64,000 nt of DNA from NCBI RefSeq assembly GCF_053078305.1, contig NZ_CP166879.1; one strand, 5' to 3'. Below are positions 9,634-50,038 of this stretch, in pieces. Made by a program: the position numbers and the translations under genes. Under the pieces are notes generated by a model. The model saw only the letters and a list, made by a program, of their open reading frames with translations. It was not told where the DNA came from and ran no database searches. Position 1 is the first letter of the stretch. Each line of letters opens with the position of its first letter.

Positions 9634-9813
9634 ATCAGGCTCCGGAGAATTGGGGCCGTCCCCGGTGAAAAGAGGCGTTTGCAGGTCGTCCTGCAAAGCT
9701 GATGGTTGAACGGATATTTTGCCAGGTGGCAGAGGAATTTCAACTATTACCTTTGTGACTATCGCAAAAAAACAAACGGCACGACACAGCTGTCGTACCG
9801 TTATTGCTTATTG

Positions 9814-23875: not shown

Positions 23876-23951
23876 GCCCGGATAGCTCAGTCGGTAGAGC
23901 AGGGGATTGAAAATCCCCGTGTCGGTGGTTCGATTCCGCCTCCGGGCACCA
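23876..23951 (+). tRNA. pheU: tRNA-Phe (anticodon GAA), pheU-type locus
   Basis: 76 nt: GCCCGGA acceptor stem pairing with TCCGGGC, D-arm AGCTCAGTCGGTAGAGC, anticodon loop ATTGAAAAT (GAA), T-loop TTCGATT, 3' CCA; followed directly by an integrase gene. Confidence 0.95.
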
Positions 23952-24146: not shown

Positions 24147-25184
24147 TCAAGATTTATTCCCCCCTTTGCAAATCTTGCTCACTGTGCGCTCATCTGTATA
24201 CAAACTCAGGGCATCTTCCAGTGTCTGCGCTGCAGACTCCATACAGACATCAACATACCCCATGGTCGTTGTAAGACTCCTGTGTCCCAGTATGGATTTG
24301 ACCAGATGTAAATTACGTTCAGGATATTTCATCAGTCTGGTTGCCAGCGTATGTCTGAAACGATGTGGTGAAACAGGAAAACCACATTCTCGCGAAAGTC
24401 GCCGGAAAAATGAACGTACGGTCTGATGCGCCCGAACGGGACAGTACTGATATCTGTCGGCAGAGATCGGCTCACTGAAACGACAGACGTCAAAAAGATA
24501 GTCATCATCACCTGCCCCGCACTGACGGGCCCGCTCCAGCAGTTTTTCCATCGATACCTTCAGGGGAGCCACCAGAGGAACGCCCCATTCCCTGTGAGTT
24601 TTACTTCCCTCCAGCTTAAGATCAATTATGCTTTCATCCGGACAGACATCCCTCACACGGATATGCTTCAGTTGATTAAAGCGCATTCCGGTATAACGCA
24701 GAACATCCAGAACTGTCAGCCAGTACCAGGCAGGGTATATAGCATTGCGTCGACGACTATTCACCATGTTCTGCTCTTCCGCTTCTGCAAACCTCTGCAC
24801 AACCAGGTAAACCCTGAGCATCTGATTGTCACTCAGTGTCTTTTTCTTTTTTTCAGTACTCGCAACTGATGCTTCCACCAACGGGTTTTCTGTCTGAGGC
24901 AGCAGTTTCATCTTGATCCCGAATCCCATAATTGCCCGCAAGTGGGCCACCTTGTTATTCCAGGTCACCTCCCTGCGCTTCTGCTCTTTCAGGACATAAC
25001 GCCGGTATCGCTGAACATCACGGACAGTCACCTCCCCCGGCAAAATATCACCGATAAATTCCCTGAATACCCTGACAACTTTGCAGTAGCTCCACTCTGT
25101 ATCCGGCCGAAGATTCTTTGAAAAAAAGTACTCTTCCAGCAGTTGTTCCCAGGTGATTTTTGTGACGGAATCGTCATTCTGCAT
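24147..25184 (-). CDS. Tyrosine-type site-specific integrase (island integrase)
   Basis: Start MQNDDSVTKITWEQLL (ATG 25184); catalytic signatures TGMRFNQL, HRFRHTLATRL and LGHRSLTTTMGYV; adjacent to the tRNA 3' end. Confidence 0.85.
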   Translation of the reverse strand: MQNDDSVTKITWEQLLEEYFFSKNLRPDTEWSYCKVVRVFREFIGDILPGEVTVRDVQRYRRYVLKEQKRREVTWNNKVAHLRAIMGFGIKMKLLPQTENPLVEASVASTEKKKKTLSDNQMLRVYLVVQRFAEAEEQNMVNSRRRNAIYPAWYWLTVLDVLRYTGMRFNQLKHIRVRDVCPDESIIDLKLEGSKTHREWGVPLVAPLKVSMEKLLERARQCGAGDDDYLFDVCRFSEPISADRYQYCPVRAHQTVRSFFRRLSRECGFPVSPHRFRHTLATRLMKYPERNLHLVKSILGHRSLTTTMGYVDVCMESAAQTLEDALSLYTDERTVSKICKGGNKS

Positions 25185-25251
25185 TATATATTCCCCTTGT
25201 TTACTGTGCTCCCGCACTCTCCGGTCAAATTCTGCACATCATCGCCTTTAC

Positions 25252-26739
25252 TCACCCGAAAACAATAAGCGGGCTGTCTCCGGGAACCGTAATATTCCCG
25301 TACAGAAACCTGCCCTTAACCAGATATCCCGAAACCATTTTGTAACGTCCGGAATGTTCTGCGTCACTATAAAGACGGGCCTGAAAAAAACGCTCTCCTG
25401 AACGTACCTTATGGATACCTGCCCGTTCAAAGAGCGACTGAACATAACGACGATCCTGCCCGGAACCACTCTCCTTCAGAAAACGATAAAAAATCCCCGG
25501 GGCACACAGAAAAACATATCCGGAAACAACATGAACATTTGAATCAACGCTGTTAACCGAAAGTGAACCCTCCCTCAGCCCCTCTTTTAACCATCTGATA
25601 AATTCACTCTCTACCCTGCTATCCTCTGTCAGGGAAAACTCTGCCGTTTTTTCCACTGTTTCCGGGATACGGTTTCCCTGATTTTCTGTTACACATCCGC
25701 TCTCTTCCGGTAACTCAATACCGCTTTCTTTATCCGGCGGCACGCCTGACGCTATCTGCCCTCCCTCATCCGACAAATCAGCAGCAGAAAACAGCGTAAG
25801 GAGCATTCCGGTATCAGCATCAGTTTCGTTCCCCTCATCCACCTCCTGTTCCGCTGTCCGGCCCTCATTTTCGGCATCCTCCACTGGCGACTGTACAACC
25901 GGCAACGGCTGAATGACGCTTTCTGCTGAAATTGCTGCTGACTGCAGCAGTACCGGAACAACCTCAGCCACCGGAACTTCGGCCACATCTCCTGCAGCGA
26001 GGGGACTCACGACTTCCTCCATAGCTTCCTGTAATACTGTACGTATCAGTGCCATTTCAGGATGCTGATGCCAGACTGCTCCGGCAAGATTCTGTAATGC
26101 CCCCGGGACAGTGGCAAGCCAGGCTCCCGCCTCTCCGGGCAGCAGTTGTCCCGCCATCAGGGCTGCCAGTTGCCGTCCCTCCGTTCCCTGGCAGGGCATC
26201 TTCCTGAACCGGAACCGGTATACGCCCTCAGGTACAGATATCCCCGGCTGCCAGCATCTGCCGTCGGCCTGTTCGCCTTCCAGTTCCGCCAGCAACGGCA
26301 GGTGATAAAACAGAGCCGACCAGAACACCACCATGTTCCACACACTCCCCTGCGCGGCCTGCTCTTCTGCTGTCGCTCCCGGTGGAAACATTCTGCCTCT
26401 GGCCAGCCGGACAGCATACGTCGTGAACTGCAGGGTCAGGTCACCAAAACCACCGGTGTAACCCCAGCGACCTTCTGCTGTGGCCGGCAGATTCTGACTG
26501 ACAGACAACAACTGATGCACAGGATCAAGACAAAGGCGCTGATACATATCCACCGGCATGGAACTGTTTTCCCATAACTGTTTCAGACACCTTTTCCTGA
26601 ACGGTGTGGATACCAGTACATCAGCCGGCAATGGTGTAAAATACCCCTCCGGCACCGTTTCCCCGGGAATATCCGTCCGGACATCAGAACATTCTGTCTT
26701 CACAGGAAATAACCTTTTCAGGCGTTCAAGCATGCCCAT
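25252..26739 (-). CDS. Hypothetical protein (495 aa) with an acidic low-complexity central region; operon partner of the helicase
   Basis: Long ORF whose start overlaps the stop of the upstream helicase gene by 14 nt; no motif I can assign. Confidence 0.5.
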   Translation of the reverse strand: MGMLERLKRLFPVKTECSDVRTDIPGETVPEGYFTPLPADVLVSTPFRKRCLKQLWENSSMPVDMYQRLCLDPVHQLLSVSQNLPATAEGRWGYTGGFGDLTLQFTTYAVRLARGRMFPPGATAEEQAAQGSVWNMVVFWSALFYHLPLLAELEGEQADGRCWQPGISVPEGVYRFRFRKMPCQGTEGRQLAALMAGQLLPGEAGAWLATVPGALQNLAGAVWHQHPEMALIRTVLQEAMEEVVSPLAAGDVAEVPVAEVVPVLLQSAAISAESVIQPLPVVQSPVEDAENEGRTAEQEVDEGNETDADTGMLLTLFSAADLSDEGGQIASGVPPDKESGIELPEESGCVTENQGNRIPETVEKTAEFSLTEDSRVESEFIRWLKEGLREGSLSVNSVDSNVHVVSGYVFLCAPGIFYRFLKESGSGQDRRYVQSLFERAGIHKVRSGERFFQARLYSDAEHSGRYKMVSGYLVKGRFLYGNITVPGDSPLIVFG

Positions 26740-28216
26740 TCTCCTGAACCCGACCTGATGTGTCGTACCCGGTCCCCCGCAGACCTTCAGTTTTCTGCTG
26801 TTCTTCTGCCAGTTGGTGCATCAGGTCATTCAGTACCAGCGTCCTGAGGGCCCGGGTGACAGCCACATATAACAGACAGGTTTCATCATGACGCTCGGCC
26901 TCCGTCATCAGCGGAACCGTGATATCCTGGAAATCCTCATCCAGCATTACAACCGGCCACTCCAGCCCCTTGCTCCGGTGTGCCGTTGACACCGTGATAT
27001 CTGCATCCTGCTCATTCGTTACCGTATACTGCCGGAGAAGTTCCAGTTTTTTCGGTAACGGAAAACACAACTCCAGAAGCCGAAGGGACTGATTCATCTC
27101 CACATCCTTCGTGGATTTTGCAATATATTTATATTCTTCAAAATTCCTGTAGTCCCGGCGCAGCCTGTCTGAATGCATCCGTTCCGGCATATCAACCTGG
27201 AACCAGTAGAGATCCTCAAGTTCCCCGGTCCTGTAACCTTCGATTCCCCCCACCCAGTAAACCTTTTGCCCTTTCATTGCCGCCATCAGCGCAGTACCAA
27301 TCACACCCGCGACAGTACGACTGAGTACCGTGTAATGCCCCTGCAGATGTTCACGCGCATGGCATTTCAGCAATACCTCATCATCACCACCACAACCTTT
27401 CACCTCTCGTGTTTCACCTTCACGCTGCAGAAGCAGATTTGCCATACGAGCCACCGCCGGACCAAAACGGAAACTCTGTGTCAGCCACAACCGGTCCGCA
27501 TTCTTCAGTGCAGGATGGGAAAGCGCATTATTCGCACCCCGAAAGCGGTAAATCTGTTGATAACAATCTCCAACAAGGACCACCCGACACTTCTGCCCCA
27601 GAACCAGAGCAGTGGTCACCGGATTCGCATCCTGCGCCTCATCAAACAGGATGGTGTCCCATCGGTGAGACAGGTCTGCACCGGACAACTGGAAGAGTTT
27701 CAGATAAGTATCGTGCGTCACCGGGAACGTCCCCCCGGGGTTGCTCATTTCGTTCCAGAGCAACTGCACCGCCCGAAGCGCATCTGCTGGCGGAACACCC
27801 CGCATCTCATCCTTATCCGGCAGGTGATGCAGGCCCGGTACCGCATCAGCAGAACAGATAAAATGATTCAGCCCCGTCCCTGCCACCCGTGCCAGAGCCC
27901 AGTATCGTGTATTCAGCTTTCTCGCCACATCAGTAATACGTAATCCCGGAACCAGCCGATGACGGTAGTGTCTTCCAACCCGGGCATACGCCAGCTGATG
28001 TGACGTTCTGCATTCCACGTTAAAGGGAAATTTACGCTCTGCCTCATCACGTATTGCCCGGTTATAGGCAAGATAGAGCATACGGCTGTCCGGACTGGCC
28101 CGGGCAAACTGCACCAGCGTACTCGTCTTCCCTGTGCCGGAAAACGCATTCACAACCAGTTGCTGCCCCTGCCAGTTAATAATGGCGTACTGTTCATCTG
28201 TGGGATTAAAAGACAT
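26726..28216 (-). CDS. UvrD/Rep-like superfamily 1 DNA helicase
   Basis: Start MSFNPTDEQYAIINWQ (ATG 28216); Walker A GTGKTS, motif II FDEAQD, C-terminal VAVTRA-type motif. Confidence 0.8.
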   Translation of the reverse strand: MSFNPTDEQYAIINWQGQQLVVNAFSGTGKTSTLVQFARASPDSRMLYLAYNRAIRDEAERKFPFNVECRTSHQLAYARVGRHYRHRLVPGLRITDVARKLNTRYWALARVAGTGLNHFICSADAVPGLHHLPDKDEMRGVPPADALRAVQLLWNEMSNPGGTFPVTHDTYLKLFQLSGADLSHRWDTILFDEAQDANPVTTALVLGQKCRVVLVGDCYQQIYRFRGANNALSHPALKNADRLWLTQSFRFGPAVARMANLLLQREGETREVKGCGGDDEVLLKCHAREHLQGHYTVLSRTVAGVIGTALMAAMKGQKVYWVGGIEGYRTGELEDLYWFQVDMPERMHSDRLRRDYRNFEEYKYIAKSTKDVEMNQSLRLLELCFPLPKKLELLRQYTVTNEQDADITVSTAHRSKGLEWPVVMLDEDFQDITVPLMTEAERHDETCLLYVAVTRALRTLVLNDLMHQLAEEQQKTEGLRGTGYDTSGRVQENGHA

Positions 28217-28447
28217 GTATTCTCTTCTCCGGAAAAACATTTCCGTAATCTGATGCATCAGGGGTATGCCCACCACAAATAACTCTGTACAGCAACAGAA
28301 AAATTTCCCTGGTCATATGATGAATTAATCATCGCCATCACACCGGATGCTTCTCATCCTGTCCTCAGAAAGACAGGTGGTCTCCTGTCTGCCGCGCTTA
28401 TCCAGGATACCGGGACCTGAAAGGTCATAATCTGGCAGGAAAAAATA

Positions 28448-34893: not shown

Positions 34894-35118
34894 ATGACAC
34901 GCAACGCAACGCAACGCAACGCAACGCAACGCAACGCAACGCAACGCAACGCAACGCAACGCAACGCAACGCAACGCAACGCAACGCAACGCAACGCAAC
35001 GCAACAATATGCTCGCCTGAACTCTCTCCGTCAAGTACCTCTACCTCCGTGCTTTCTGGAGGTACTGTATGAATATACGCAACAATCATCTACCGGGAAC
35101 AGAAACTCTTTTTTCTGA
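34894..35118 (+). CDS. Candidate leader ORF containing the pentanucleotide tract and overlapping the mod start
   Basis: ATG 34894 preceded by GAGG (34885-34888); reads MT(RNATQ)x7 through the repeat and ends at 35118, 50 nt beyond the mod ATG; coding status unproven. Confidence 0.35.
   Translation: MTRNATQRNATQRNATQRNATQRNATQRNATQRNATQQYARLNSLRQVPLPPCFLEVLYEYTQQSSTGNRNSFF
34899..35005 (+). repeat. Perfect pentanucleotide simple-sequence repeat (GCAAC)21
   Basis: 21 uninterrupted GCAAC units at 34901-35005 (tract with partial unit starts 34899), ending 63 bp upstream of the mod ATG. Confidence 0.97.
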
Positions 35119-37105: not shown

Positions 37106-37107
37106 TC

Positions 37108-40020: not shown

Positions 40021-40103
40021 ACACATGCATGATAACAAAGTGGAGGTGGTTTCACCCCCACTTTATAATTATACACACATCACAAAATTCGCAGGTGAGT
40101 TCA

Positions 40104-40802
40104 ATGACAACATGTTCTGAACTGAAGGAAAGAGCCCGTTTTGATGGTATGCATGATGCTTCTCTTGAAGTGGCATGGCAATTACTTATGACGAAAAGTG
40201 TATCCACTATTACTACTGAGATAATATCCGGTGCAGACATGTCCAATTTTTCAGTGATTATCAGGGAACGATATAAACATGCAATAGCAAAATCTCTTCT
40301 CAATCATTTATCTCCCGATGTTGTTTCTGACATCATCGGTTTATCTCATGATGAGTTCAATCAACAATATAAAGGCAATTTAACCAGACAACAACACCTG
40401 AGAGATATTGCTGTAAGTTTAACAGATAAAGGATTCACAGAATCATCTGCATGTAATATTGTCAACCTGGACCTAATGTTACTTCCTGAAGAAAACTGGT
40501 TACTTTATAAAGAAAATTACAATACAGGATATCAGGATGCACTTTATAAATCCGTATGGAGAATGCACACATACGAATATCCAACAGCAACCATCAGTTG
40601 TTTGACAAAATTAAATAATGAAAATATATTAAATATTATTACAGGTATAGAAGTAATACTCCTCGCAGCAAAAAAACCTGCATGTAAAGACAGAACAGAT
40701 AAAATTGCTGAAATGCTGAAAATACCATTCTCTGTCGTCAAAGAATTTATTGATGAACAGGCTTTATTGAACAAATCAAACATTCAGGGAACTGGCAGTT
40801 GA
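40104..40802 (+). CDS. Hypothetical protein immediately downstream of res
   Basis: ORF 40029..40802; preferred start ATG 40104 (MTTCSELKERARF) with AGGTGA Shine-Dalgarno; AT-rich like mod/res. Confidence 0.45.
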   Translation: MTTCSELKERARFDGMHDASLEVAWQLLMTKSVSTITTEIISGADMSNFSVIIRERYKHAIAKSLLNHLSPDVVSDIIGLSHDEFNQQYKGNLTRQQHLRDIAVSLTDKGFTESSACNIVNLDLMLLPEENWLLYKENYNTGYQDALYKSVWRMHTYEYPTATISCLTKLNNENILNIITGIEVILLAAKKPACKDRTDKIAEMLKIPFSVVKEFIDEQALLNKSNIQGTGS

Positions 40803-40848
40803 ACAAAACGCCAGTCCGAAGACTGGCGCAGTGATAAAACATTCTGCA

Positions 40849-41535
40849 TCATGCCACATTCTGCTCCTGAAGATGACGCAGACGATGGTCCCAGTTTCCC
40901 AGGTAATGCCCGGGCGTCAGCAGTACGCGGCGTCGCTCATTACAGAGCGAGTTACCAATCACCACTTCTCCGGCCACACCACACAACGACAGTTGTATAT
41001 ACGCCATGCCGGCTGCCAGCGGGTCAATATCCGTTGCCGACACCCACATCCTGCGATATGCCGGATACCCCGAACGGTTCAGGGTGTCAGCCATTGCCAG
41101 AATCATACTGCCGGCACCACAGGCAGGTTCACTGAGCGTGATAAAGGGTTTGTTCTCAAACAACGCCTTCACATCTCCCATCTGCATCTGTGCCATCATG
41201 CTGGCAACACTCCAGGGCGTGAAAAACTGACTCCGGTATTTATCCCCCAGTTCCAGTTGCATGAACACACTCCCCAGAAAATCACAGACTCCCTGCTCCA
41301 GTCCCTCAATGACATGAGCAAGCAAATGCGCAATGTGGATAACATCCTGCTTTTCATAACCACTGACGATCCGCAGATACTTCTGTTCCCGGGCCTCACT
41401 GAACTGAAGCCGGTTTTCCAAGGCAATCACACTACAGCTGACAAAGTCTTCAAACACCTTATGACGTTTGTGATAACAGGCTGTCCGGTTAAACAACGAA
41501 ATGAACTCCTTCTGATGGTCAGTCATGGTGGCCAT
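40849..41535 (-). CDS. N6-adenine DNA methyltransferase-like protein (HsdM-like fold, short, apparent degenerate motif IV)
   Basis: 228 aa; QFFTPWSV and SEPACGAGSM resemble the FxTP and AdoMet-binding motifs of HsdM-like methyltransferases; no canonical NPPF/DPPY seen. Confidence 0.55.
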   Translation of the reverse strand: MATMTDHQKEFISLFNRTACYHKRHKVFEDFVSCSVIALENRLQFSEAREQKYLRIVSGYEKQDVIHIAHLLAHVIEGLEQGVCDFLGSVFMQLELGDKYRSQFFTPWSVASMMAQMQMGDVKALFENKPFITLSEPACGAGSMILAMADTLNRSGYPAYRRMWVSATDIDPLAAGMAYIQLSLCGVAGEVVIGNSLCNERRRVLLTPGHYLGNWDHRLRHLQEQNVA

Positions 41536-41646
41536 GTTTTCTCCGTAAAAACAGGGAACACATGGCCCGGACAGGGGAACAGGTGTTCCCCTTCGGGTTG
41601 AAATGTTGATAAAACGGGCATCACGGACATGATACCCGGAGGTTAA

Positions 41647-42594
41647 TTACTGGGCTGAGACCAGAGGAACCGGTAAAGGTGCGGCTTTCGTCTGTTCTTC
41701 AGCGCACTCCTCCACCAGGTACAGTCGGGGCTGTGGAAGTGTTTCCCTGCCCGGCCATTCGGCCTGCAGATCACTGTCCGTATGCTCTCCGCCATCGTAA
41801 CAGTTGTAACCCTGTATACCGTGTACCGGCTCGCTGTACCAGTGTCGGACCTCGCAGTCAAACACCTTCGAGATCTCACCAACCAGTTCGCCTGAAGGCG
41901 GATACCAGGGCGTGTCGATCAGCAGCACCAGACTGCTCATCTCATCACGCGCATGGCGAACATTATTTCCTGACGGCCACTCCACACCGTATATCCGGCT
42001 GTAAAGGCTGGTCGTTGTGGAAATACCCTGCAGCAGTCCACCTGAACCATTCAGCTCTGTAGCCAGACGGGAGGGTATGACCATCAGCATGTCACAGGGC
42101 TGCGCCTGTTCCGGGTAATCCGACAACCAGCTCCAGCAGGCTTCTGCATCAATGTGTTCACTCAGCCCGGCCAGACCAAACCAGTCAGAATACTGACGGC
42201 TCATCAGCGTGGTGATGATCTCCCTGGCATTATCCGGCAGATTACCCCAGCGAACAGCGCCGATACATGACTGGTGATAAAGACGCTCAATGGTCTTTAT
42301 CGTTTCACCATCCAGAACGGCATTTTTTACCAGCAACCCCAGCCACTGCTCAAACGCCTGGTTAGCCGGAGATGACAACCCCGTTCCGTGACGAACCAGC
42401 GCCGGATATGGCGGATACTGCGTCGTCCGTGTGGGTTTTACCAGCCCTGCACAACCGGCCAGAAACAGCTGTATACTCTGCTGTATGGCATGACGGTAGC
42501 GCGGGGTCTCACGCCCTTCAATCCACTGTGTAAGTACATCAAGACAGACTGATTTACCGGTAATTTCAAAACGGTTTTTGCACCATTCAGACAT
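41647..42594 (-). CDS. Hypothetical protein (315 aa)
   Basis: ORF only; first in a same-strand run of genes. Confidence 0.5.
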   Translation of the reverse strand: MSEWCKNRFEITGKSVCLDVLTQWIEGRETPRYRHAIQQSIQLFLAGCAGLVKPTRTTQYPPYPALVRHGTGLSSPANQAFEQWLGLLVKNAVLDGETIKTIERLYHQSCIGAVRWGNLPDNAREIITTLMSRQYSDWFGLAGLSEHIDAEACWSWLSDYPEQAQPCDMLMVIPSRLATELNGSGGLLQGISTTTSLYSRIYGVEWPSGNNVRHARDEMSSLVLLIDTPWYPPSGELVGEISKVFDCEVRHWYSEPVHGIQGYNCYDGGEHTDSDLQAEWPGRETLPQPRLYLVEECAEEQTKAAPLPVPLVSAQ

Positions 42595-42677
42595 TGTTTA
42601 CGCTCCTCTTTTTTATACAGATGTAAAAAGAGGGCATTGTCCCGTGAGGTACAATGCCCTCACGGGAAAACGGGGTA

Positions 42678-42992
42678 TCACGCCCCGTTGTTGCGGATAA
42701 AACCCTGCAGCCAGGCAGTTCGCTCAGGGCCATACCGCCTGTTGACATTCATCAGTTCGTCTGCAGACGGATTGATGAAAAGGTTGTAGTACCAGAGCTC
42801 TTCCTTTAAATCCGCCAGGTTCCCCCTGCCGGTCCTGAGCCACTCCTGTACAACATCCCTGATTTCAGATGTGACATCTCCACGGTAATTTGACGTGATC
42901 GTAACATCTGCCAGTAATTCACTGATATTTCCTGCTATCAGACACGGTTCAGAGATCCCGTTACAGAACCAGACAAGGCATTTACCAGCCAT
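42678..42992 (-). CDS. Hypothetical protein (104 aa)
   Basis: ORF only; 3-bp gap to the upstream ORF. Confidence 0.4.
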   Translation of the reverse strand: MAGKCLVWFCNGISEPCLIAGNISELLADVTITSNYRGDVTSEIRDVVQEWLRTGRGNLADLKEELWYYNLFINPSADELMNVNRRYGPERTAWLQGFIRNNGA

Positions 42993-42995
42993 ACC

Positions 42996-43433
42996 TTACC
43001 TCCTGTATTTGCTGGTATTTATCCCGATCTCGTTTATGGCTACGGATATGTTGCCCGGAAAACGCGCTGTTTCAATCTTCTCCAGCTCGTTTTTCCGGTA
43101 ACGCTCCACGGTCACACTCAACGGGACGTTCCCCTGTCCGTACTCTTTACGAAGGCGATCAATACACTCCTGTACCAGTTCATCGCTGAAATAACGGGAT
43201 TCAAGCACAGACAGCAGCCCGTCTTTATTCTCAAACCCCTCTGTGACAGAGCGTACTTCGGCCTCCGTTGGACCATCCAGCCAGCTCACCCACACATTGT
43301 TGAAAACTTTCGGGAAAGATGGATCGCATTTCCGCACAGAAAATTTCTGTCCCGGAAATGTATACGCCAGCACATCCCTGATACGGGCCACAACAGCATC
43401 GTCAACATCAACCAGTGCGTTATCGTTCATCAC
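42996..43433 (-). CDS. Hypothetical protein (145 aa)
   Basis: ORF only; same strand, tightly spaced. Confidence 0.45.
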   Translation of the reverse strand: MMNDNALVDVDDAVVARIRDVLAYTFPGQKFSVRKCDPSFPKVFNNVWVSWLDGPTEAEVRSVTEGFENKDGLLSVLESRYFSDELVQECIDRLRKEYGQGNVPLSVTVERYRKNELEKIETARFPGNISVAINEIGINTSKYRR

Positions 43434-43539
43434 TCAGTTCCTCTGTAATCCTGAAATAACAGAGAGCACTGCCCCGTGAGGGACAATGCCCTCACGGGAT
43501 AAATGGCGGTCAGGTTATAACCGCCACCGGTAGTAAAAA

Positions 43540-44517
43540 TTATGCTGCGCACTCCTGCGAAGTTCGCCGCGTCAGTAAATACTCTGATGCTTCACGTGCC
43601 TGCCGGCAGGCGCGAAACAGCGCTTTTTTGTCAGACTTCAGAACCTTAAGCCATCCGTCAATATAACTTTCGTGCTGTACGTCACCGGCAATCCCGAGAT
43701 GTGCACACAGAAAAGCACTGCCCATCTCGGCAATCAGCTCTTCAAACGCATATTCCGGGCTTTTGCGACCGGTAAAGGTACTTATCCCCACCCGCCGCAG
43801 GCGCTTTTCATGACCGGTACTGTGTACCAGCTCATGCAGCAGGGTGGCCTGGTAATCAGCCACCTGGTCAAACTGCGACGACAGTGGCATCACGATACGG
43901 TCAAGATCAGGCCGGTAGAATGCCCTGTCCTGTGGAAGTGACGAGACGCTGACGCCGCTGCCATTCAGTACCTGCAGCACCCGCTCACTGAAGGTATCTG
44001 CCGGCAGTGCATCCGCGCTGCCTTCCGCCTTCACCATCAGATGTTCAGGTAAACCGTCACACTGCCCCACATTAAACAGAGGATTCGATTTCAGTACCGG
44101 TACGATTTCCATGAGAGGCTCCCCCTCACTGTCCGTCAGCCGGTTACCGTGTTCATCCACAGCCTGTTTTTTCCAGTCTTTGTAAATCACCGCCAGCGTG
44201 GCCACCTCCCCTTTACGGACGTGGCCACCCAGTTGTTGCGCCTGACGGTACGTCAGCCAGTCATTGCTGACATACCCGGCTTCATCCGCGGCCAGCCACA
44301 GCAACAGGACGTTCACCCCTGTATAAGGCTTCCCGGTCAGGGCATTTGCCGGCATCATCTCCGGAAGCCCCACGCCATTACGCGCAGAGCGCCAGGGACG
44401 TTTCCAGGGTGGCACACCATTTTCAATGGCCGTAACAACCCTGTCGGTCACAAGCTGATACAGGTCACGTTCCGGAGTTTTAATCGCGGTACGTGAAGTA
44501 TGTTTTTTCGTTTTCAT
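43540..44517 (-). CDS. ArdC-like anti-restriction protein (N-terminal ssDNA-binding domain plus zincin metalloprotease domain)
   Basis: Start MKTKKHTSRTAIKTPE (ATG 44517); HExxH zinc-protease motif in LLHELVHSTGH; architecture typical of conjugative-element ArdC. Confidence 0.7.
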   Translation of the reverse strand: MKTKKHTSRTAIKTPERDLYQLVTDRVVTAIENGVPPWKRPWRSARNGVGLPEMMPANALTGKPYTGVNVLLLWLAADEAGYVSNDWLTYRQAQQLGGHVRKGEVATLAVIYKDWKKQAVDEHGNRLTDSEGEPLMEIVPVLKSNPLFNVGQCDGLPEHLMVKAEGSADALPADTFSERVLQVLNGSGVSVSSLPQDRAFYRPDLDRIVMPLSSQFDQVADYQATLLHELVHSTGHEKRLRRVGISTFTGRKSPEYAFEELIAEMGSAFLCAHLGIAGDVQHESYIDGWLKVLKSDKKALFRACRQAREASEYLLTRRTSQECAA

Positions 44518-44609
44518 AAGAGCATGCCCCCTGAAAAAGATGCACGCTCCCTGTACGGTGAGAGTGCACCGTACAGTTAAATTAATAACGAAAATCAGAC
44601 TGGCCAGAA

Positions 44610-45029
44610 TTACCACAACGCCAGCATCACCAGTGAACGACGCTCAAAATCAAACGTCTTCAGCGTATTGCTGACCCACGCTTTTACGTCATCCACGTCA
44701 TACCAGTAATCACCGGCATAATCTTCCCCCCGTAAACACGAGCCTGTGACATAAGGAAACAGCCTGTGGCAGTTCCCCGGTGTCAGCATACTGAGGTCGC
44801 GCAATAATGCAGCCAGTGAACTGCGGGTTACAGGGAAAGCATGCTGCTCATCTGAAGCACCGGTATGTTCACGAAACCATGTCAGAAGAGGTTTCACCTT
44901 ACGGAAAGCCCCCACCTCCTGATGTTCCTGTGTTCCCACAACGGCACCACTGTGATGGTTATCACGAGCCAGAAAGTAAATATCGAGTCCCATAACAATT
45001 CTCCTGAATAAAGCCGGGACTCTCCCCAC
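44610..45029 (-). CDS. Hypothetical protein (139 aa; may start at the internal MGLDIYF)
   Basis: ORF only. Confidence 0.35.
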   Translation of the reverse strand: MGRVPALFRRIVMGLDIYFLARDNHHSGAVVGTQEHQEVGAFRKVKPLLTWFREHTGASDEQHAFPVTRSSLAALLRDLSMLTPGNCHRLFPYVTGSCLRGEDYAGDYWYDVDDVKAWVSNTLKTFDFERRSLVMLALW

Positions 45030-45108
45030 AGGGATATGTCCCTGCCGGGTGATATAATGACGGAATACGTGATGACGTTATTCCGGATAAAGAAACTACG
45101 GCGTTCTG

Positions 45109-45768
45109 TTACCGCCCACCGGCAAGAGCCCGCAGCCAGTAAAGCTGATATTCGGCCTCTTCCAGTGCTGCCCAGTCATCCGGGGATAACTGTCGCCCCT
45201 GACCGGACAAAAACTGCAGCAGTAAGCTGTCAAACACATCTCCCCTTACCAGGGTGGTTAATACAGACTCCGGAGCAGAAAAATTCTCATGCCCCAGGTA
45301 CCGTTTTATCCATTTCAGCGGCAGCGACCAGCTGGCACCACCGACAGTGGAATGAATACGAAAACAGTCCGGACACAGATTGTGCAACAGCACAAAGACT
45401 GTACGGGCAAAGAAATCTCCCGGCTGACGTCCGAAATTCAGCTCATTAAGAGCCAGAATATTCCGGCTGTGCTCCCGCTCAATAGTGACATTCACCGACC
45501 ACAGCCCGTCGGCAGACCGGCAGTAAAACGCCAGCGTGTCCGTTACCGGAAACAACTCTGACGCCCGGGTCAGGGAGCCGAAATACGCATTCTGCGGCCG
45601 TAACGCCTCCGGCAACTGCCAGAAGGTTTCAGTGGCAGCCAGAACAAAAGCATGCCACTGCTTTTCCGGTATTGTGGAAACCTGCTCAAGGGTATATACC
45701 ACCGGCTCACGGGCCGGACGTGAAGATAACTCAGACATGGAACATTCCTCATGGTTAAAACGAAACAA
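45109..45768 (-). CDS. Hypothetical protein (219 aa)
   Basis: ORF only; same strand as ArdC-like gene. Confidence 0.45.
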   Translation of the reverse strand: MFRFNHEECSMSELSSRPAREPVVYTLEQVSTIPEKQWHAFVLAATETFWQLPEALRPQNAYFGSLTRASELFPVTDTLAFYCRSADGLWSVNVTIEREHSRNILALNELNFGRQPGDFFARTVFVLLHNLCPDCFRIHSTVGGASWSLPLKWIKRYLGHENFSAPESVLTTLVRGDVFDSLLLQFLSGQGRQLSPDDWAALEEAEYQLYWLRALAGGR

Positions 45769-45819
45769 CGGGGAATGTCTCCCGGACGGAGAACTCCCCC
45801 GTCAGGGTCAGGTCATGAA

Positions 45820-46197
45820 TTACATCATGTCGTGCCGGGCAAAATATTCATCCGCTCCGGCCACCATCTTTCCGGTACTGATACTGTCAGCCCAGATTTC
45901 ATGATTAATTTCACGCCCCAGAGCCATCAGACTGTCGAGTGCCTGACGGGCCTGAATTCCCGGTGCGGAAATCTCCTCCTGCTCCAGGTCATACAACAGC
46001 CAGCCCAGCGCCTCGCCGGTATCCCACAGATACACGTATACCAGTGAAGGCTCCGTCTCATCATCCGGCTCCGGGGTAATACCCAGCCGTTGCCAGGCTC
46101 GTAACCGCATCAGCTCGCCTTCCATCTGACTGATATGAGCCAGCAGAGCAGACTGCGTCTGAAGCGCTGAATAATGAGCAATTAAAGGTGAATACAT
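45820..46197 (-). CDS. Hypothetical protein (125 aa)
   Basis: ORF only. Confidence 0.4.
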   Translation of the reverse strand: MYSPLIAHYSALQTQSALLAHISQMEGELMRLRAWQRLGITPEPDDETEPSLVYVYLWDTGEALGWLLYDLEQEEISAPGIQARQALDSLMALGREINHEIWADSISTGKMVAGADEYFARHDMM

Positions 46198-46954
46198 GAT
46201 GACCTCCGTCTCTTAAAGGAAGTCCTGTCCCTGACGGAACAAAACTCCCGTCAGGGAAAACACCGGCGCAAAAACACGGTGCAGTAAGTAAAAGAAAAAC
46301 CGTTACGGGAGCAAAACAGCCATCATTGCAAAATGGCAGTTGCATCGCTCACGATTTGACATCCTTCCTGTGACTGACTGGCATCCTGCCCGTCAGTCTG
46401 CGTCGGAAAATTCAATACAGGCCTGCTTCAGGAGCCCGGCTATACGTTGATTCAGACATTCCGTCCAGCCATCGTTCCATCCACGCTCCCATGGATTGCA
46501 GACATCCTCCTATGGATTGCAGACATCGTTACAGCCATTCTTCCATGTCTTCCATGCCTCCATCTCCATGACAGCCCCCAGCCTGTGGCCTTTCACACGT
46601 ATATGCCACAGAAACGGCCGGAAAAGTCCTGATTTCAGTTGGTCACCACCGCTTTTGTAGCCCAGATGACATGCAACACTTTCAGTATATTCAAATGCAT
46701 CATTCTGCATTCCAGCCGCCTTAGCCAGCGAGCTGTACGCATCACGAAGTATCGTCATACCTTCCAGTTGATACTCACACCACGCACGGACAGCCGACAC
46801 TGGTGCGATTACCCGAAGAATGGTGCAGGGACGCCATACAACAATGTAAAGGAGTATTAACAGACTATGCATGTGTTCACCTCAGATACAAAAAATAACG
46901 GGAACACACCTGCCTTGCGGGAAGCGTGTTCCCGACAGGGTAATAAATGATAAA

Positions 46955-47515
46955 TCAGCAGGGCTGTGCGACGATTCCATCACCCTGCAGACCAAACCGG
47001 TAACGCAGGGTGGTCAGTTGCTCCGCCATACGGCAGGCAGCATGCCATGTCCTGCGACGGGATATCCGTCCGGTAAACCGGTTCAGATAAATGACCTCAC
47101 GCGGTAACGGCTGATACCATCCTGTGTACTCGTTGCGATACATTCCCTGCCGGTAATACAGGCAGGGTGTCCAGACACCGCCACGACGGAACATACAGAC
47201 CCGCACGCTCAGATTGCCGGCCGGATTAGTGTACCAGCGACTGTAATATGACAGGTTATTGCGGGAAAAAAACACCCGCAACTGAGCCGTCATTCGCCGG
47301 AAAAAAGAAGAGATGCCCGGTTCAGGGCACAAAATAAACGTTGACATAAAGACTCCTGTAAAAAAACGGGAGCCTTCGCCCCGACGGACAAAAACTCCCG
47401 TCAGGGTTAAAACACCACCAGTACAGCATGGTGTTGCTGTCAGAAAAAGCCCGTTAATAAAGGGCGCAGTTATAAAGAAACCTTCATCGTCATGACTGAC
47501 GATATCTGCTCTCAA
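46955..47515 (-). CDS. Hypothetical protein; 5' part overlaps the left direct repeat so true start is uncertain
   Basis: 186-aa ORF; alternative start MSTFILCPEPG; possibly a prophage-remnant family but not confirmed. Confidence 0.3.
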   Translation of the reverse strand: MRADIVSHDDEGFFITAPFINGLFLTATPCCTGGVLTLTGVFVRRGEGSRFFTGVFMSTFILCPEPGISSFFRRMTAQLRVFFSRNNLSYYSRWYTNPAGNLSVRVCMFRRGGVWTPCLYYRQGMYRNEYTGWYQPLPREVIYLNRFTGRISRRRTWHAACRMAEQLTTLRYRFGLQGDGIVAQPC

Positions 47516-47773
47516 AGGTGGGCAGATTTACCACCACCAGAAACATCCTGGCTGCACATCCCCTTTCAGGTTACGGGGGTGTTGATCACCCGAAGGCGTT
47601 CCTCTCAGATCAACGGAACATTGGTGCCCACCGAAGCGGGATGTGGTCACCCGAAGGCGCTCCTCTCAGACCACTTATGGAGCATTGGTGGTCGCCGAAG
47701 CGACATGTAGCCACCCGAAGGCGCTCCTCTCAGGCCACTTGTGGAGCATTGGTGGTCGCCGGAGCGACATATA
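47449..47773. repeat. Direct repeat copy 1 (about 325 bp) with three degenerate tandem ~63-bp sub-units
   Basis: Near-identical to 49782-50038 over about 255 bp; sub-units begin CACCCGAAGGCG(C/T)TCCTCTCAG at about 47584, 47647 and 47711. Confidence 0.9.
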
Positions 47774-47812
47774 AGCCTGTATATTTTTAAATCACAAAAG
47801 ATGAATGTCAAG

Positions 47813-48136
47813 TTATTCAACATCAATCCAAAGAGGAATATTATGTATTCCCTTAACGGGTTCTCCCAGAGGAAAAACACAGGTCCCTTTAATCAGTATT
47901 TTTCTTCCCGACCATCTGACATCACAGTTAAAATCTCCCACCACATCAAAATAATCCGCAATGGATTCATAGATGTCCCATTCATCATAGATATCCCATT
48001 TATCTGCTGTTCCTTCACATTCAAACTCGGCCTGATATCCGGAATCAACATATCGCGCCAGATAGTGTGACCACAAAGGCGAATTTTTTGTAATCTCTTT
48101 TACAGAGATTATTTTCAGCAAAATAGTACAATCCAT
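47813..48136 (-). CDS. Hypothetical small protein inside the repeat-flanked segment
   Basis: 107-aa ORF only. Confidence 0.25.
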   Translation of the reverse strand: MDCTILLKIISVKEITKNSPLWSHYLARYVDSGYQAEFECEGTADKWDIYDEWDIYESIADYFDVVGDFNCDVRWSGRKILIKGTCVFPLGEPVKGIHNIPLWIDVE

Positions 48137-48168: not shown

Positions 48169-49086
48169 TTACTCATAGCCTAACAACTGACAATAAACCT
48201 GTTCAATATATCGTCCTCTGCCATCACCATGACCAAGATCAATTGATGTCAGTGCAAGTGCCTCCTTATAACTGTAACCGTTCATAATATGATATTTCAT
48301 GGCACTTGCAGCGTAACTGTACCGAAAACTGTGTGCAGTCTCATCTCTGCCTTTCAGTTCTCCATAACGACGTAATGTATTAAGATAATAATCCATTGCC
48401 GACTTAAGATTATCTCTGTCTATAAGACGTCCATTATGTTCACTGGCATATTTGAGTGCATAATTAACAGCATCAAGAACGTTATCCCGGTCAACAACCG
48501 TTGTCATTCTTTCCCGTCCCCCTTTCGTACCAAAAATCACTCTTATTTTTTCATCTCCCCGTTGTAACGCTTTTTTCCAGGTTCGTAATGATTTGGCCGA
48601 CTGGATAGCTTCTTCATTTCTCAGACCGAGGTAACGTGACAGTTTAACAACAGCAGCCACCCCTTTATCTTTTGCTTCCACACGCTGAAGAATCTCCCGA
48701 AAACGCTCATCCGTGATTAATTTTTTTGTTCCCTTACGACTGGAGCCGGAAATGCCTAACGCTTTATTGCTGAGACGAGGATGTTCGGGATCAGCCATCT
48801 TATATTTACCTGCCTGACGTAACATAACCCGTATTGCAGACATTTCATTTTCCCTTGTTCGCCCAGAAACATTATTCCGGCTTCTCATATATAGCTCAAT
48901 ATGCCGGACTTTTACCTGCGCGGCAGAACTGATCTGTACATTCATTTTTGCCAGACTTTCAGCAAAGCGGTGCATGATCCTGGTGTAATCACTCAGCTTC
49001 TTGAAGCTGCCTTTGTCTTTTCGAATGTGAGCAACCAGATCCTGTTTCAGTAATTTTTCACGTCTGGACATCAACTTCTCCTGCAC
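48169..49086 (-). CDS. Putative tyrosine-type site-specific recombinase
   Basis: 305 aa; C-terminal AHSFRYSYAASAM (H-x-x-R box) and LGHGDGRGRYIEQVY (His...Tyr) resemble tyrosine recombinase catalytic motifs; flanked by long direct repeats. Confidence 0.5.
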   Translation of the reverse strand: MQEKLMSRREKLLKQDLVAHIRKDKGSFKKLSDYTRIMHRFAESLAKMNVQISSAAQVKVRHIELYMRSRNNVSGRTRENEMSAIRVMLRQAGKYKMADPEHPRLSNKALGISGSSRKGTKKLITDERFREILQRVEAKDKGVAAVVKLSRYLGLRNEEAIQSAKSLRTWKKALQRGDEKIRVIFGTKGGRERMTTVVDRDNVLDAVNYALKYASEHNGRLIDRDNLKSAMDYYLNTLRRYGELKGRDETAHSFRYSYAASAMKYHIMNGYSYKEALALTSIDLGHGDGRGRYIEQVYCQLLGYE

Positions 49087-49120: not shown

Positions 49121-49171
49121 GCAGATGAGTTTTTCTGTTGTGCCGTGAACACAACAGAAAAACTCATCTGC
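49121..49171. other. Perfect 22-bp-stem hairpin 35 bp upstream of the recombinase start
   Basis: GCAGATGAGTTTTTCTGTTGTG - ccgtgaa - CACAACAGAAAAACTCATCTGC, arms exactly complementary. Confidence 0.85.
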
Positions 49172-49781: not shown

Positions 49782-50038
49782 TGCCCGTAATAAAGGGCGC
49801 GGTTAAAAGAAACCTTCATCGTCATGACTGACGATATCTGCTCTCAAAGGTGGGCAGATTTACCACCACCAGAAACATCCTGGCTGCACATCCCCTTTCA
49901 GGTTACGGGGGTGTTGATCACCCGAAGGCGTTCCTCTCAGATCAACGGAACATTGGTGCCCACCGAAGCGGGATGTGGTCACCCGAAGGCGCTCCTCTCA
50001 GACCACTTATGGAGCATTGGTGGTCGCCGAAACGACAG
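49782..50038. repeat. Direct repeat copy 2 (about 255 bp, two ~63-bp sub-units)
   Basis: Matches 47449-47705 nearly base for base; diverges after GGTCGCCGAA. Confidence 0.9.

Follow-up and report, generated by a model that had tools for sequence, protein, structure and literature searches.

The ArdC protein of the IncW plasmid R388 is needed in recipient cells only when hsdRMS is present there, and it is dispensable in donors (PMC7213743). Antirestriction genes are also known as companions of the STAXI RNA motif, which has been published together with them, with XerDC genes and with ICEs of the MPF-G type (PMC2864571, PMC5587801). A further point of reference is provided by leading regions, which according to a preprint are difficult to recognise by computation in MOBH systems.

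We consider here a stretch of 64,000 nucleotides of E. coli DNA (contig NZ_CP166879.1, assembly GCF_053078305.1), hereafter the window, in which ten consecutive open reading frames lie on the minus strand, separated by gaps of 3-312 bp. A sequence-only reading of this DNA had correctly given their positions and strand, but not the end of the run, which is extended by two further genes on the same strand (47813-48136 and 48169-49086). We understand the run as the backbone 'ArdC operon' of an ICE of the PFGI-1/ICEclc/SPI-7 class (MOBH relaxase, MPF-G), located at tRNA-Phe of E. coli, where it would form an establishment and anti-restriction module, a reading to which we give a probability of about 0.62. 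Among its genes are a genuine ArdC anti-restriction gene and several partners as yet uncharacterised; the operon has no relation to the neighbouring restriction-modification (R-M) system and is therefore mostly ordinary, with two testable oddities. The features are the following.

24147..25217, minus strand: ICE tyrosine integrase, adjoining tRNA-Phe (23876-23948)
25252..26739, minus strand: TraI relaxase, PFGI-1 class (MOBH), TIGR03760 210.5 bits for a cutoff of 161.4
26726..28276, minus strand: UvrD-like helicase, the gene directly after ORF1 in cargo-free elements
40849..41535, minus strand: ORF1, 228 aa, HsdM-like half-methylase (N6_Mtase profile, AlphaFold model and fold matches)
41647..42594, minus strand: ORF2, 315 aa, DUF1281/Api92-like (Pfam DUF1281 E 3e-74, DUF1281_C E 5.8e-12)
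42678..42992, minus strand: ORF3, 104 aa (PHROG 10958 E 9.6e-11)
42996..43430, minus strand: ORF4, about 144-145 aa, LPD29, large polyvalent-protein-associated domain 29 (Pfam LPD29 E 2.9e-8 and RefSeq name)
43540..44517, minus strand: ORF5, ArdC, 325 aa, a single-strand DNA-binding ArdC-N domain and a zincin metallopeptidase domain
44610..44993, minus strand: ORF6, 127 aa (PHROG 7971 E 2.9e-12)
45109..45738, minus strand: ORF7, 209 aa, small family
45820..46197, minus strand: ORF8, 125 aa (PHROG 22073 E 1.4e-6)
46393..46872, minus strand: ORF9, 152 aa in the intact allele, here cut to 120 aa (46510-46872)
46955..47347, minus strand: ORF10, 130 aa, first gene of the operon (homologues and RefSeq annotation)
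47365..47402, minus strand: terminator-like hairpin of 17 pairs followed by a T-run, ending some 20 nt short of the start codon of ORF10
47476..47641, minus strand: STAXI RNA motif (RF01728), operon-proximal copy, 75.7 bits (gathering score 40.5)
47813..48136, minus strand: ORF11, 107 aa, found only in E. coli
48169..49086, minus strand: XerDC-like 'integrase domain' protein (Pfam Integrase_1 E 8.2e-55, Phage_int_SAM_2 E 5.1e-22); the RefSeq start gives about 300 aa
49214..49371, minus strand: EFASI RNA motif (RF02957), 53.2 bits (gathering score 51.2)
49872..50037, minus strand: STAXI RNA motif, distal copy, 91 bits

Several of these gene calls depart from those first proposed. The frame of 186 aa, opened at a TTG (47515), runs into the STAXI RNA, and both its homologues and RefSeq support 130 aa (ORF10), while RefSeq starts shorten the frames of 139 and 219 aa to 127 aa (ORF6) and 209 aa (ORF7). 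The 120-aa frame does exist, but as a truncated allele of a gene that encodes 152 aa in other strains: a 21-bp imperfect tandem duplication (46475-46516) has brought in a TAG stop. Of the eight frames said to carry no assignable motif, two do belong to families, those of 315 aa (DUF1281 with DUF1281_C) and 145 aa (LPD29).

That the DNA belongs to a conjugative element, as previously proposed, is borne out by a TraI above the TIGR03760 cutoff and by the integrase at tRNA-Phe. The same order of features recurs on one strand, namely STAXI, EFASI, integrase-domain gene, STAXI, small ORFs, ORF7, ArdC, DUF1281, half-methylase, UvrD, TraI and integrase, in Erwinia, Pantoea, Mixta, Citrobacter, Salmonella SGI-4 and other Enterobacterales; it is uninterrupted in pEB102, and shared by SGI-4 and the Citrobacter element. 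In a set of 80 ArdC-centred loci, 13-14 from Enterobacterales share positions and strand, and in about 30 from Pseudomonas ArdC lies 1.6 kb upstream of traI. The gene run is not a chance arrangement, because distant elements keep this order at 29-77% protein identity.

Conservation as a unit, however, is a property of the core, which is found in other islands and on plasmids, and not of ORF3, ORF4, ORF6, ORF9 and ORF11, which do not accompany it across the 80 loci; these five being lineage-specific, a 'ten-gene functional unit' overstates the case. ORF3, an accessory gene, is confined to this window and strain FHI_NMBU_10, and is missing from E. coli variants of 88% coverage and from all 80 loci; the accessory ORF4 is similarly patchy in these variants and loci. 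ORF9 is restricted to E. coli in the same comparison, and ORF8 occurs in 3 of the 80 loci, with a homologue in the Citrobacter element. In 14 of the 80, DUF1281 is conserved at a distance of +1.1 kb from ArdC, ORF2 being close to Api92 (PDB 2ijr, E 7.5e-116), the structure of which has been solved. ORF7 is a conserved partner of ArdC in Enterobacterales, matched to no solved structure; the C-terminal 36 residues of ORF6 resemble the C-terminus of long proteins of the ORF7 family.

It might be supposed that we are looking at an inactive relic, left by a decayed ICE in a mosaic pathogenicity island and without present function. The absence of transfer genes from the 64-kb window, the presence to the right of ireA, of a haemagglutinin gene and of an OmpA-family gene, the premature stop in ORF9, and the IS and transposase fragments of related islands would all fit, and the element may indeed have decayed in this strain. 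Yet nine ORFs of the ten have remained intact, and the block is 99% identical to that of FHI_NMBU_10, in the island of which TIGR0375x transfer genes follow at a distance of about 6 kb; the window stops short of the far end of the element, so that loss of transfer genes is not demonstrated. We therefore hold a functionless relic to be quite improbable.

The ArdC-like protein with its HExxH motif has proved to be what it was said to be. ORF5 matches Pfam ArdcN (E 2.2e-35) and MPTase-PolyVal (E 3.5e-37), aligns end to end with R388 ArdC (PDB 6i89, E 5.8e-60), and in this alignment keeps both HELVH and the glutamate helix EELIAE. By its sequence it is a bona fide ArdC homologue, in which every sequence feature of R388 ArdC is retained.

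ORF1, the short protein with an HsdM-like methyltransferase fold, was rightly identified as well: its N6_Mtase match is weak and partial (E 1.6e-3); AlphaFold gives it a confident model (pLDDT 92.7), and the best neighbours in the PDB are HsdM and gamma-class N6 methylases. It comprises an N-terminal helical domain, motifs X, I, II and III, and strand beta4; no more than four strands appear in the model, strands 5-7 and the target-recognition domain being absent. At the position of motif IV (NPPF/Y) the family displays an invariant TPxH[YW], and FFTP, EPxCG and D169 are likewise invariant in proteins of constant length (225-235 aa). One could see in ORF1 an active orphan m6A DNA methyltransferase, protecting incoming DNA in the manner of other orphan methylases, which are enriched in leading regions (PMC11541004); its RefSeq name is N-6 DNA methylase and its SAM-binding motifs are conserved. 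But no aligned member of the family contains (D/N/S)PP(Y/F/W), the confident model has four strands and lacks a target-recognition part, and M.EcoGIX, the leading-region enzyme that has been characterised, belongs to another family, being a DPPY methylase of the beta class. With four strands and no NPPY/F motif, ORF1 is unlikely to be an active methylase; deprived of the catalytic motif and of the DNA-target half, it would more probably bind SAM or subunits of the restriction complex than methylate DNA. The missing motifs and the gene context suggest that it may act through such binding as a decoy or as an adaptor of ArdC. Homologues are found on 2,199 plasmids, one of them in the IncF leading region of pGR-1504, flanked there by psiA and oriT, and in 14 of the 80 loci a gene of this type follows ArdC 1.0-2.4 kb downstream. 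In Skermanella pSR-4, ArdC and an N6-like gene directly precede a MobF relaxase, and ORF5 and ORF1 both match PHROG 23459 (649 aa), a fusion seen as a profile only.

Another reading is that of a DNA-processing module. ArdC-N, the half-methylase and the small proteins could be relaxosome or transfer-replication accessories rather than counter-defence proteins, and would assist UvrD and TraI in unwinding, coating or priming the strand under transfer, in donor or recipient. In cargo-free elements uvrD-traI follows the block directly and in the same orientation, across a gap of about 100-140 bp, and this close linkage fits DNA processing equally well; so do the position of ArdC directly upstream of traI across Pseudomonas ICEs, the ssDNA-binding nature of ArdC-N, and the QLTLF/QLTFF ends of long ORF1 homologues (pSR-4, phage FP_Taranis), a putative beta-clamp-binding motif. 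Against it stands the recipient-specific, hsdRMS-dependent need for R388 ArdC; moreover, several elements tolerate cargo between ORF1 and uvrD, so that co-transcription with uvrD-traI is not required. We regard this alternative as possible but doubtful, and anti-restriction or establishment as the most likely function that the sequences suggest for the operon.

In the window the slot between half-methylase and uvrD is filled by low-GC cargo that includes the Type III R-M system; elsewhere it houses subAB, sil or McrBC-like genes, or is empty. The proposal that the ORFs regulate or antagonise this R-M system, whether by controlling it or by conferring self-immunity, drew on physical adjacency only and did not survive comparison. 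The R-M genes have a GC content of about 35%, as against 52% for the block, and run convergently with it; among 5,426 complete genomes of E. coli not one joins the two, which stand about 1.5 Mb apart in STEC2018-553, and elements of Erwinia, Pantoea, Salmonella and Citrobacter have the block without any R-M. The Type III R-M is unrelated cargo, and such a regulatory role is extremely improbable.

Upstream of the genes, STAXI occupies the proximal position in all 13 elements checked, and a hairpin with its T-run is found in 10 of 12 elements though its sequence differs; in the papers that we read, we found no description of such a conserved hairpin separating the first ORF from the proximal STAXI. 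Each STAXI here is enclosed in one copy of a 232-nt perfect direct repeat (47474-47705 and 49806-50037). EFASI scores 85-91 bits at the matching position of other elements, and the XerDC-like protein has counterparts of 50-52% identity in SGI-4, the Citrobacter element and pEB102. Expression of the operon is probably gated by attenuation, because transcription must cross both the STAXI leader and the hairpin before reaching the first start codon.

An establishment and anti-restriction module would act as the element enters a new cell. ArdC would bind the incoming single strand, and its metalloprotease would counter Type I restriction, as shown for R388, with DUF1281, ORF7 together with ORF6, ORF8 and ORF10 as possible accessory factors. 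Early entry and early expression are assumptions, since we did not locate the oriT of this ICE class. What stands of the anti-defence cluster first proposed is thus a real ArdC, the domains MPTase and LPD29, which are associated with polyvalent proteins, and a protein of methylase fold with relatives in the IncF leading region; a free-standing island is rejected, the ORFs forming a backbone operon of the ICE.

Set beside the leading-region anti-defence islands (Samuel et al. 2024, PMC11541004), the locus shares a same-strand run of small genes with anti-restriction and methylase-like members, and homologues of ORF1 as well as DUF5983 occur in the IncF leading region; it differs in having no ssb or psiB within the block and no visible Frpo-like long hairpin, a STAXI RNA leader standing there instead, and the analogy is unproven. 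The polyvalent proteins of conjugative elements (Iyer et al. 2017, PMC5512222) likewise combine ArdC-N, MPTase, LPD29 and an adenine-methylase fold, in one giant polypeptide whereas here the domains are separate small genes. HsdM and the gamma-class N6-adenine methylases (PF02384; 3lkd, 3khk, 7vs4) share with ORF1 the N-terminal helical domain and motifs X, I, II and III, but also have motif IV, strands 5-7 and a C-terminal HsdS-binding region that it lacks, and neither hsdS nor hsdR adjoins it. Both STAXI and EFASI exceed their gathering thresholds, in the published context of an antirestriction gene and a XerDC integrase, with EFASI downstream of STAXI; this arrangement is here resolved into two units, with a conserved hairpin added. 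With ArdC of R388/pSa (PDB 6i89, 6sna), ORF5 shares its two domains over their full length, the HExxH and glutamate helix, and residence on a conjugative element; its identity is just moderate, it is known here from sequence, and its gene, in a MOBH/MPF-G ICE, is placed upstream of that for the relaxase and not within a leading region that has been mapped. The Api92 island of Yersinia pseudotuberculosis and the backbone of SPI-7, SGI-4 and pEB102 agree with the locus in the full order from the integrase-domain gene to TraI, to which the present copy adds ORF3 and ORF4 (LPD29), the E. coli-specific ORF9 and ORF11, and a cargo of its own, the Type III R-M.

The run of small genes beside the Type III restriction-modification (R-M) system belongs to the ICE backbone, as a module already known and widely annotated, and is not a new island. 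The ORF listing of the window places its ten reading frames on the minus strand with gaps of 3–312 bp; the compact one-strand run described by the sequence-only reading is present, with corrected gene boundaries. On the same strand the run is followed by a 107-aa ORF and then by a 305-aa ORF with an integrase domain, and three Rfam matches lie on this gene strand as well.

Features of the operon and its leader, with domains from a Pfam search of the concatenated proteins
40849–41535, minus strand: ORF1, HsdM-like half-methylase; N6_Mtase, weak and partial
41647–42594, minus strand: ORF2; DUF1281 and DUF1281_C
42678–42992, minus strand: ORF3
42996–43430, minus strand: ORF4; LPD29
43540–44517, minus strand: ORF5, ArdC; ArdcN and MPTase-PolyVal
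44610–44993, minus strand: ORF6
45109–45738, minus strand: ORF7
45820–46197, minus strand: ORF8
46393–46872, minus strand: ORF9
46955–47347, minus strand: ORF10
47402–47365, minus strand: 17-bp hairpin followed by a T-run
47476–47641, minus strand: proximal STAXI RNA (RF01728), 75.7 bits
47813–48136, minus strand: ORF11, 107 aa
48169–49086, minus strand: XerDC-like integrase-domain gene, 305 aa
49214–49371, minus strand: EFASI RNA
49872–50037, minus strand: second STAXI RNA (RF01728), 91 bits

The boundaries of ORF6, ORF7 and ORF10 follow RefSeq, which annotates a 99.1%-identical copy of the block in E. coli strain FHI_NMBU_10 with inner starts, giving proteins of 127, 209 and 130 aa. A 186-aa version of ORF10, which overlaps the proximal STAXI element, is unsupported because homologue alignments begin at residue 1 of the 130-aa form. 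ORF9, annotated by RefSeq as 152 aa in FHI_NMBU_10, is cut to 120 aa in the window by a TAG that comes with a 21-bp imperfect tandem duplication (46475–46516). No Pfam match was obtained for ORF3 and ORF6 to ORF11, ORF6 to ORF11 gave only chance matches among PDB sequences, and comparison of the ten ORFs with NCBIfam and PADLOC returned nothing useful beyond weak methylase matches for ORF1. For ORF3, ORF4, ORF6 and ORF8 the matching PHROGs have no known function. ORF2 resembles Api92 (PDB 2ijr, E 7.5e-116 in a PDB sequence search); literature searches found nothing relevant on the function of Api92 or DUF1281. Prophage structural genes were ruled out as the identity of the ORFs, whose PHROG matches are either anti-restriction or without known function and whose surroundings are those of an ICE. 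Three long proteins of the ORF7 family, including a 334-aa protein of Salmonella SGI-4, bear a C-terminal extension whose final 36 residues resemble the ORF6 C-terminus (E-values of 5e-4 to 9e-4 against a small database), a hint that ORF7 and ORF6 may work together. In these 313–342-aa proteins (L004:5278-6282 of SGI-4, P0145 and P0149) the extension ends in an ORF6-like manner (...DFER...W), suggesting a putative ORF7–ORF6 fusion.

In this stretch of E. coli chromosome, dicD and tRNA-Phe (23876–23948) are followed by an adjacent tyrosine integrase (24147–25217), a TraI-domain protein and a UvrD-like helicase, all three on the minus strand, and TraI is a PFGI-1-class MOBH relaxase (TIGR03760, 210.5 bits against a curated cutoff of 161.4). 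The MPF-G transfer genes (TIGR03749–03757 families) are absent from the 64-kb window and lie about 6 kb past the block in the FHI_NMBU_10 island, where subAB and sialic-acid genes occupy the slot held here by the R-M system. The island cargo region of the window also encodes the STnc100 sRNA (RF02076; 32852–33054, minus strand, 138.7 bits), which has a DUF465 gene nearby in a related island; in the core chromosome, a guanidine-II (mini-ykkC) riboswitch (9651–9697, minus strand) lies ahead of sugE, as expected.

The gene order is shared beyond E. coli. Plasmid pEB102 of Erwinia billingiae, typed as conjugative, MOBH and MPF_G, carries uninterrupted on one strand the integrase-domain gene, four small ORFs, an ORF7 homologue, ArdC, DUF1281, DUF5983, an N-6 methylase, UvrD and TraI; the same order is found in SGI-4 and in a circular Citrobacter element, with cargo after the methylase-like or DUF1281 gene (sil genes in SGI-4, an AAA ATPase with DUF2357 in the Citrobacter element). 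By local blastp, conservation among these elements extends to the integrase-domain protein, ORF10, ORF8, ORF7, ORF5, ORF2 and ORF1, and only weakly to ORF6. DUF5983, absent from the window, is a second gene common to the ICE block and the IncF leading region: it sits between DUF1281 and the half-methylase in pEB102 (L005:15070-15381), and beside DUF932 near oriT in a Klebsiella IncF leading region (L007:14373-14702).

A scan with ORF5, keeping one genome per species, gave 80 ArdC loci, which were then searched by tblastn with all block proteins. A uniform one-strand layout was found in 13–14 Enterobacterales loci (Erwinia, Pantoea, Mixta, Chimaeribacter, Pluralibacter, Leclercia and others), with the integrase-domain gene at -3 to -5 kb from ArdC, ORF7 at -1.5 to -2.5 kb, DUF1281 at +1.1 kb, ORF1 at +2.0 to 2.4 kb, UvrD at +2.9 to 3.2 kb and TraI at +4.6 to 4.8 kb. 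Some 30 Pseudomonas loci have traI 1.6 kb downstream of ArdC and lack the other block genes; none of these neighbours occurs at the alphaproteobacterial ArdC loci. Part of the block is present in 117 of the 5,426 complete E. coli genomes, at least 80% of it in 32, and the common E. coli variant is devoid of ORF3 and ORF4. We can therefore understand the block as a conserved core (ORF10, ORF8, ORF7, ArdC, DUF1281 and ORF1) with lineage-specific additions. Conservation as a unit holds for this core and fails for ORF3, ORF4, ORF9 and ORF11, present in none of the 80 loci, and for ORF6, present in one.

The proposal that the uncharacterized ORFs regulate the neighbouring R-M system must be abandoned, as the latter is unrelated cargo. 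Its genes (35069–40020, plus strand, left of the block), whose res matches the Type III endonuclease equivalog, have a GC content of about 35%, as opposed to about 52% in the block. The junction between R-M and ORF1 is found in none of the 5,426 complete E. coli genomes; relatives of the system (at most 94% identity) are located elsewhere, in strain STEC2018-553 some 1.5 Mb from that strain's own copy of the block. Cargo inserts in the slot between ORF1 and uvrD, which is empty in most species, the gap then being only about 100–140 bp. Directly after res lies a 257-aa ORF (40029–40802, plus strand) of low GC, with no NCBIfam match and missing from the other E. coli copies of the R-M system.

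The ArdC-like metalloprotease at the centre of the run has been borne out, and ORF5 is, as judged from its sequence, a genuine ArdC. Its N-terminus matches the ssDNA-binding domain ArdC-N (PF08401, E 2.2e-35) over model positions 2–123 of 123, and its C-terminus the gluzincin metalloprotease domain MPTase-PolyVal (E 3.5e-37). It aligns end to end with R388 ArdC (6i89, E about 1e-59 in a PDB sequence search), its HELVH and EELIAE falling on HEATH and EELIAE, so that the HExxH motif and the glutamate helix, the defining features of the ArdC metalloprotease domain (PMC7213743), are both kept. As an ArdC it would be expected to relieve Type I (HsdRMS) restriction from within the recipient.

The HsdM-like protein is probably of another nature than its annotation implies. 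Among the 120 listed of the 263 relatives of ORF1 that were found, almost all are 220–235 aa long, and in an alignment of 20 members motif X (QFFTP), motif I (EPxCG, EPACGAG), D169 and GNxL show little or no variation. ORF1 contains both SAM-binding motifs, X (FxTP) and I (D/E-P-x-C/G-G-x-G). The catalytic motif IV, (D/N/S)PP(Y/F/W), is absent from close and distant members of the family, and in the alignment TPxH[YW] takes its place after strand beta4; the distant ones are encoded by a Klebsiella IncF plasmid, by Acinetobacter and Skermanella, and by phages of Faecalibacterium and Vibrio. The confident AlphaFold model of ORF1 (pLDDT 92.7) consists of an N-terminal helical domain followed by four strands only, ending 20 residues past beta4; it contains neither the complete seven-stranded methylase fold nor a target-recognition part, and no hsdS is adjacent. 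Its Foldseek neighbours are HsdM, PacII M, M.BseCI and similar gamma-class enzymes, with TM-scores of only 0.36–0.46 because half of the fold is missing. With motif IV absent and half the fold missing, ORF1 is therefore not filed as an active methylase. Membership of the M.EcoGIX ssDNA methylase family was ruled out: M.EcoGIX, a characterized leading-region methylase, is a beta-class DPPY enzyme unrelated to the ORF1 family. A weak DNA match in one E. coli plasmid proved to be a pseudogene fragment.

The ORF1 family is widespread: it occurs on about 2,200 plasmids (2,199 in PLSDB, 1,511 of them typed conjugative), adjoins oriT in the leading regions of IncF plasmids and is found with ArdC repeatedly. 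The F-type leading region of Klebsiella pGR-1504 reads ssb, ParB, psiB, psiA, N-6 methylase (the ORF1 family), DUF932, DUF5983, SLT, traM; Skermanella pSR-4 has an ArdC-like gene, the N6-like gene, a small ORF and a MobF relaxase; and an HMM search finds the family in 14 of the 80 loci, at 1.0–2.4 kb downstream of ArdC. PHROG 23459, a 649-aa profile, matches ORF5 at positions 94–270 and ORF1 at 425–641, which suggests that fused ArdC–ORF1 forms may exist. Phage records yielded no such fusion, their 12 homologues being stand-alone genes of 281–297 aa; the idea of a fusion is therefore drawn from this profile only. The long homologues of pSR-4 (L091:7024-7896) and of Faecalibacterium phage FP_Taranis (L089:3965-4858) have a low-complexity tail, absent from ORF1, ending in QLTLF or QLTFF and similar to a beta-sliding-clamp-binding motif. 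We infer that ORF1 may bind SAM or subunits of Type I restriction complexes, perhaps jointly with ArdC. Thousands of plasmid genes named 'N-6 DNA methylase', devoid of the catalytic motif and of half the fold, are not to be counted as orphan methylases.

Upstream of the operon, both STAXI elements score above the gathering score of 40.5, as EFASI does above its own. Each STAXI belongs to one copy of a 232-nt perfect direct repeat (47474–47705 and 49806–50037, 2,332 bp apart) flanking ORF11 and the integrase-domain gene, with 64-nt internal tandem units at 47615–47774. The elements examined repeat the order STAXI, EFASI, integrase-domain gene, STAXI, first small ORF, and STAXI stands directly ahead of the small-ORF/ArdC operon in all 13 of 13. 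This matches the published context of STAXI, 'Ssbp, Topoisomerase, Antirestriction, XerDC Integrase' (PMC2864571); EFASI takes its name from 'Frequently Around STAXI and Integrases' (quoted in PMC12370729), and MPF-G ICEs are reported to be rich in STAXI (PMC5587801). Between the proximal STAXI and ORF10, the hairpin and its T-run end about 20 nt before the ATG, directly before AGGAG, and 10 of 12 elements have a hairpin with T-run at that place, its sequence taking three different forms (comparison loci L003, L004, L010, L011, L016, L019, L020, L022 and L068 are among those having it). Promoter-like hexamers ahead of both STAXI copies are consensus matches only. This arrangement suggests that the operon may be read through an attenuator-type leader. 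Other strong hairpin and T-run sites on the minus strand follow ORF1 (40808–40829) and separate ORF2 from ORF1 (41615–41638) and ArdC from ORF4 (43462–43493); 10 kb contain 29 terminator-like sites, where shuffles give 9.7 ± 2.8. Between EFASI and the integrase-domain gene, 35 nt upstream of the longest version of that ORF, lies a perfect inverted repeat (49121–49171) of 22 nt around a 7-nt loop.

Two features deserve to be followed up, the family of non-catalytic HsdM-like half-proteins and the STAXI–terminator leader. We would give roughly one chance in five to the proposition that the ORF1 family, an N-terminal domain with the SAM-binding half of HsdM, is a new kind of anti-restriction factor, either a decoy titrating HsdR/HsdS or an adaptor directing the ArdC protease to Type I complexes, and that, separately, STAXI may be the attenuator leader timing expression of the operon. 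The orphan STAXI and EFASI motifs now have fixed positions ahead of an operon, with a terminator-like hairpin, and their function becomes directly testable. ArdC, DUF1281, the half-methylase, ORF7 and ORF6 make a defined syntenic set for studying how these ICEs survive restriction on entry; their family disseminates cargo for virulence and metal resistance among Enterobacterales (subAB islands, SGI-4, Pantoea and Erwinia plasmids).

How far, then, does the operon resemble the anti-defence islands of conjugative leading regions, as had been proposed at the outset? The ardC gene of R388 sits in the leading region (PMC7213743), as do the IncF relatives of ORF1, yet Pfam, NCBIfam and PHROG gave no match to the usual companions ssb, psiB/psiA and ardA/klcA in the twelve ORFs, and ssDNA folds of the STAXI region (47440–47800; z = -2.2 and -2.6), examined for the long imperfect hairpin of a Frpo-type single-strand promoter, show short hairpins and modest structure; the analogy is therefore only plausible. 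ICEclc-class elements have two oriTs according to the literature, where their positions were not found, and a 2026 preprint describes the leading regions of MOBH systems as hard to identify in silico. What stands of the proposal is an operon of a conjugative element, with a genuine ArdC and a likely function in establishment or anti-restriction; what does not is the novelty of the island and any link to the neighbouring R-M system. The apparent anti-defence island beside an R-M system is re-filed as the conserved backbone operon of an ICE family, sharing ArdC with the leading region of R388 and the half-methylase with those of IncF plasmids.
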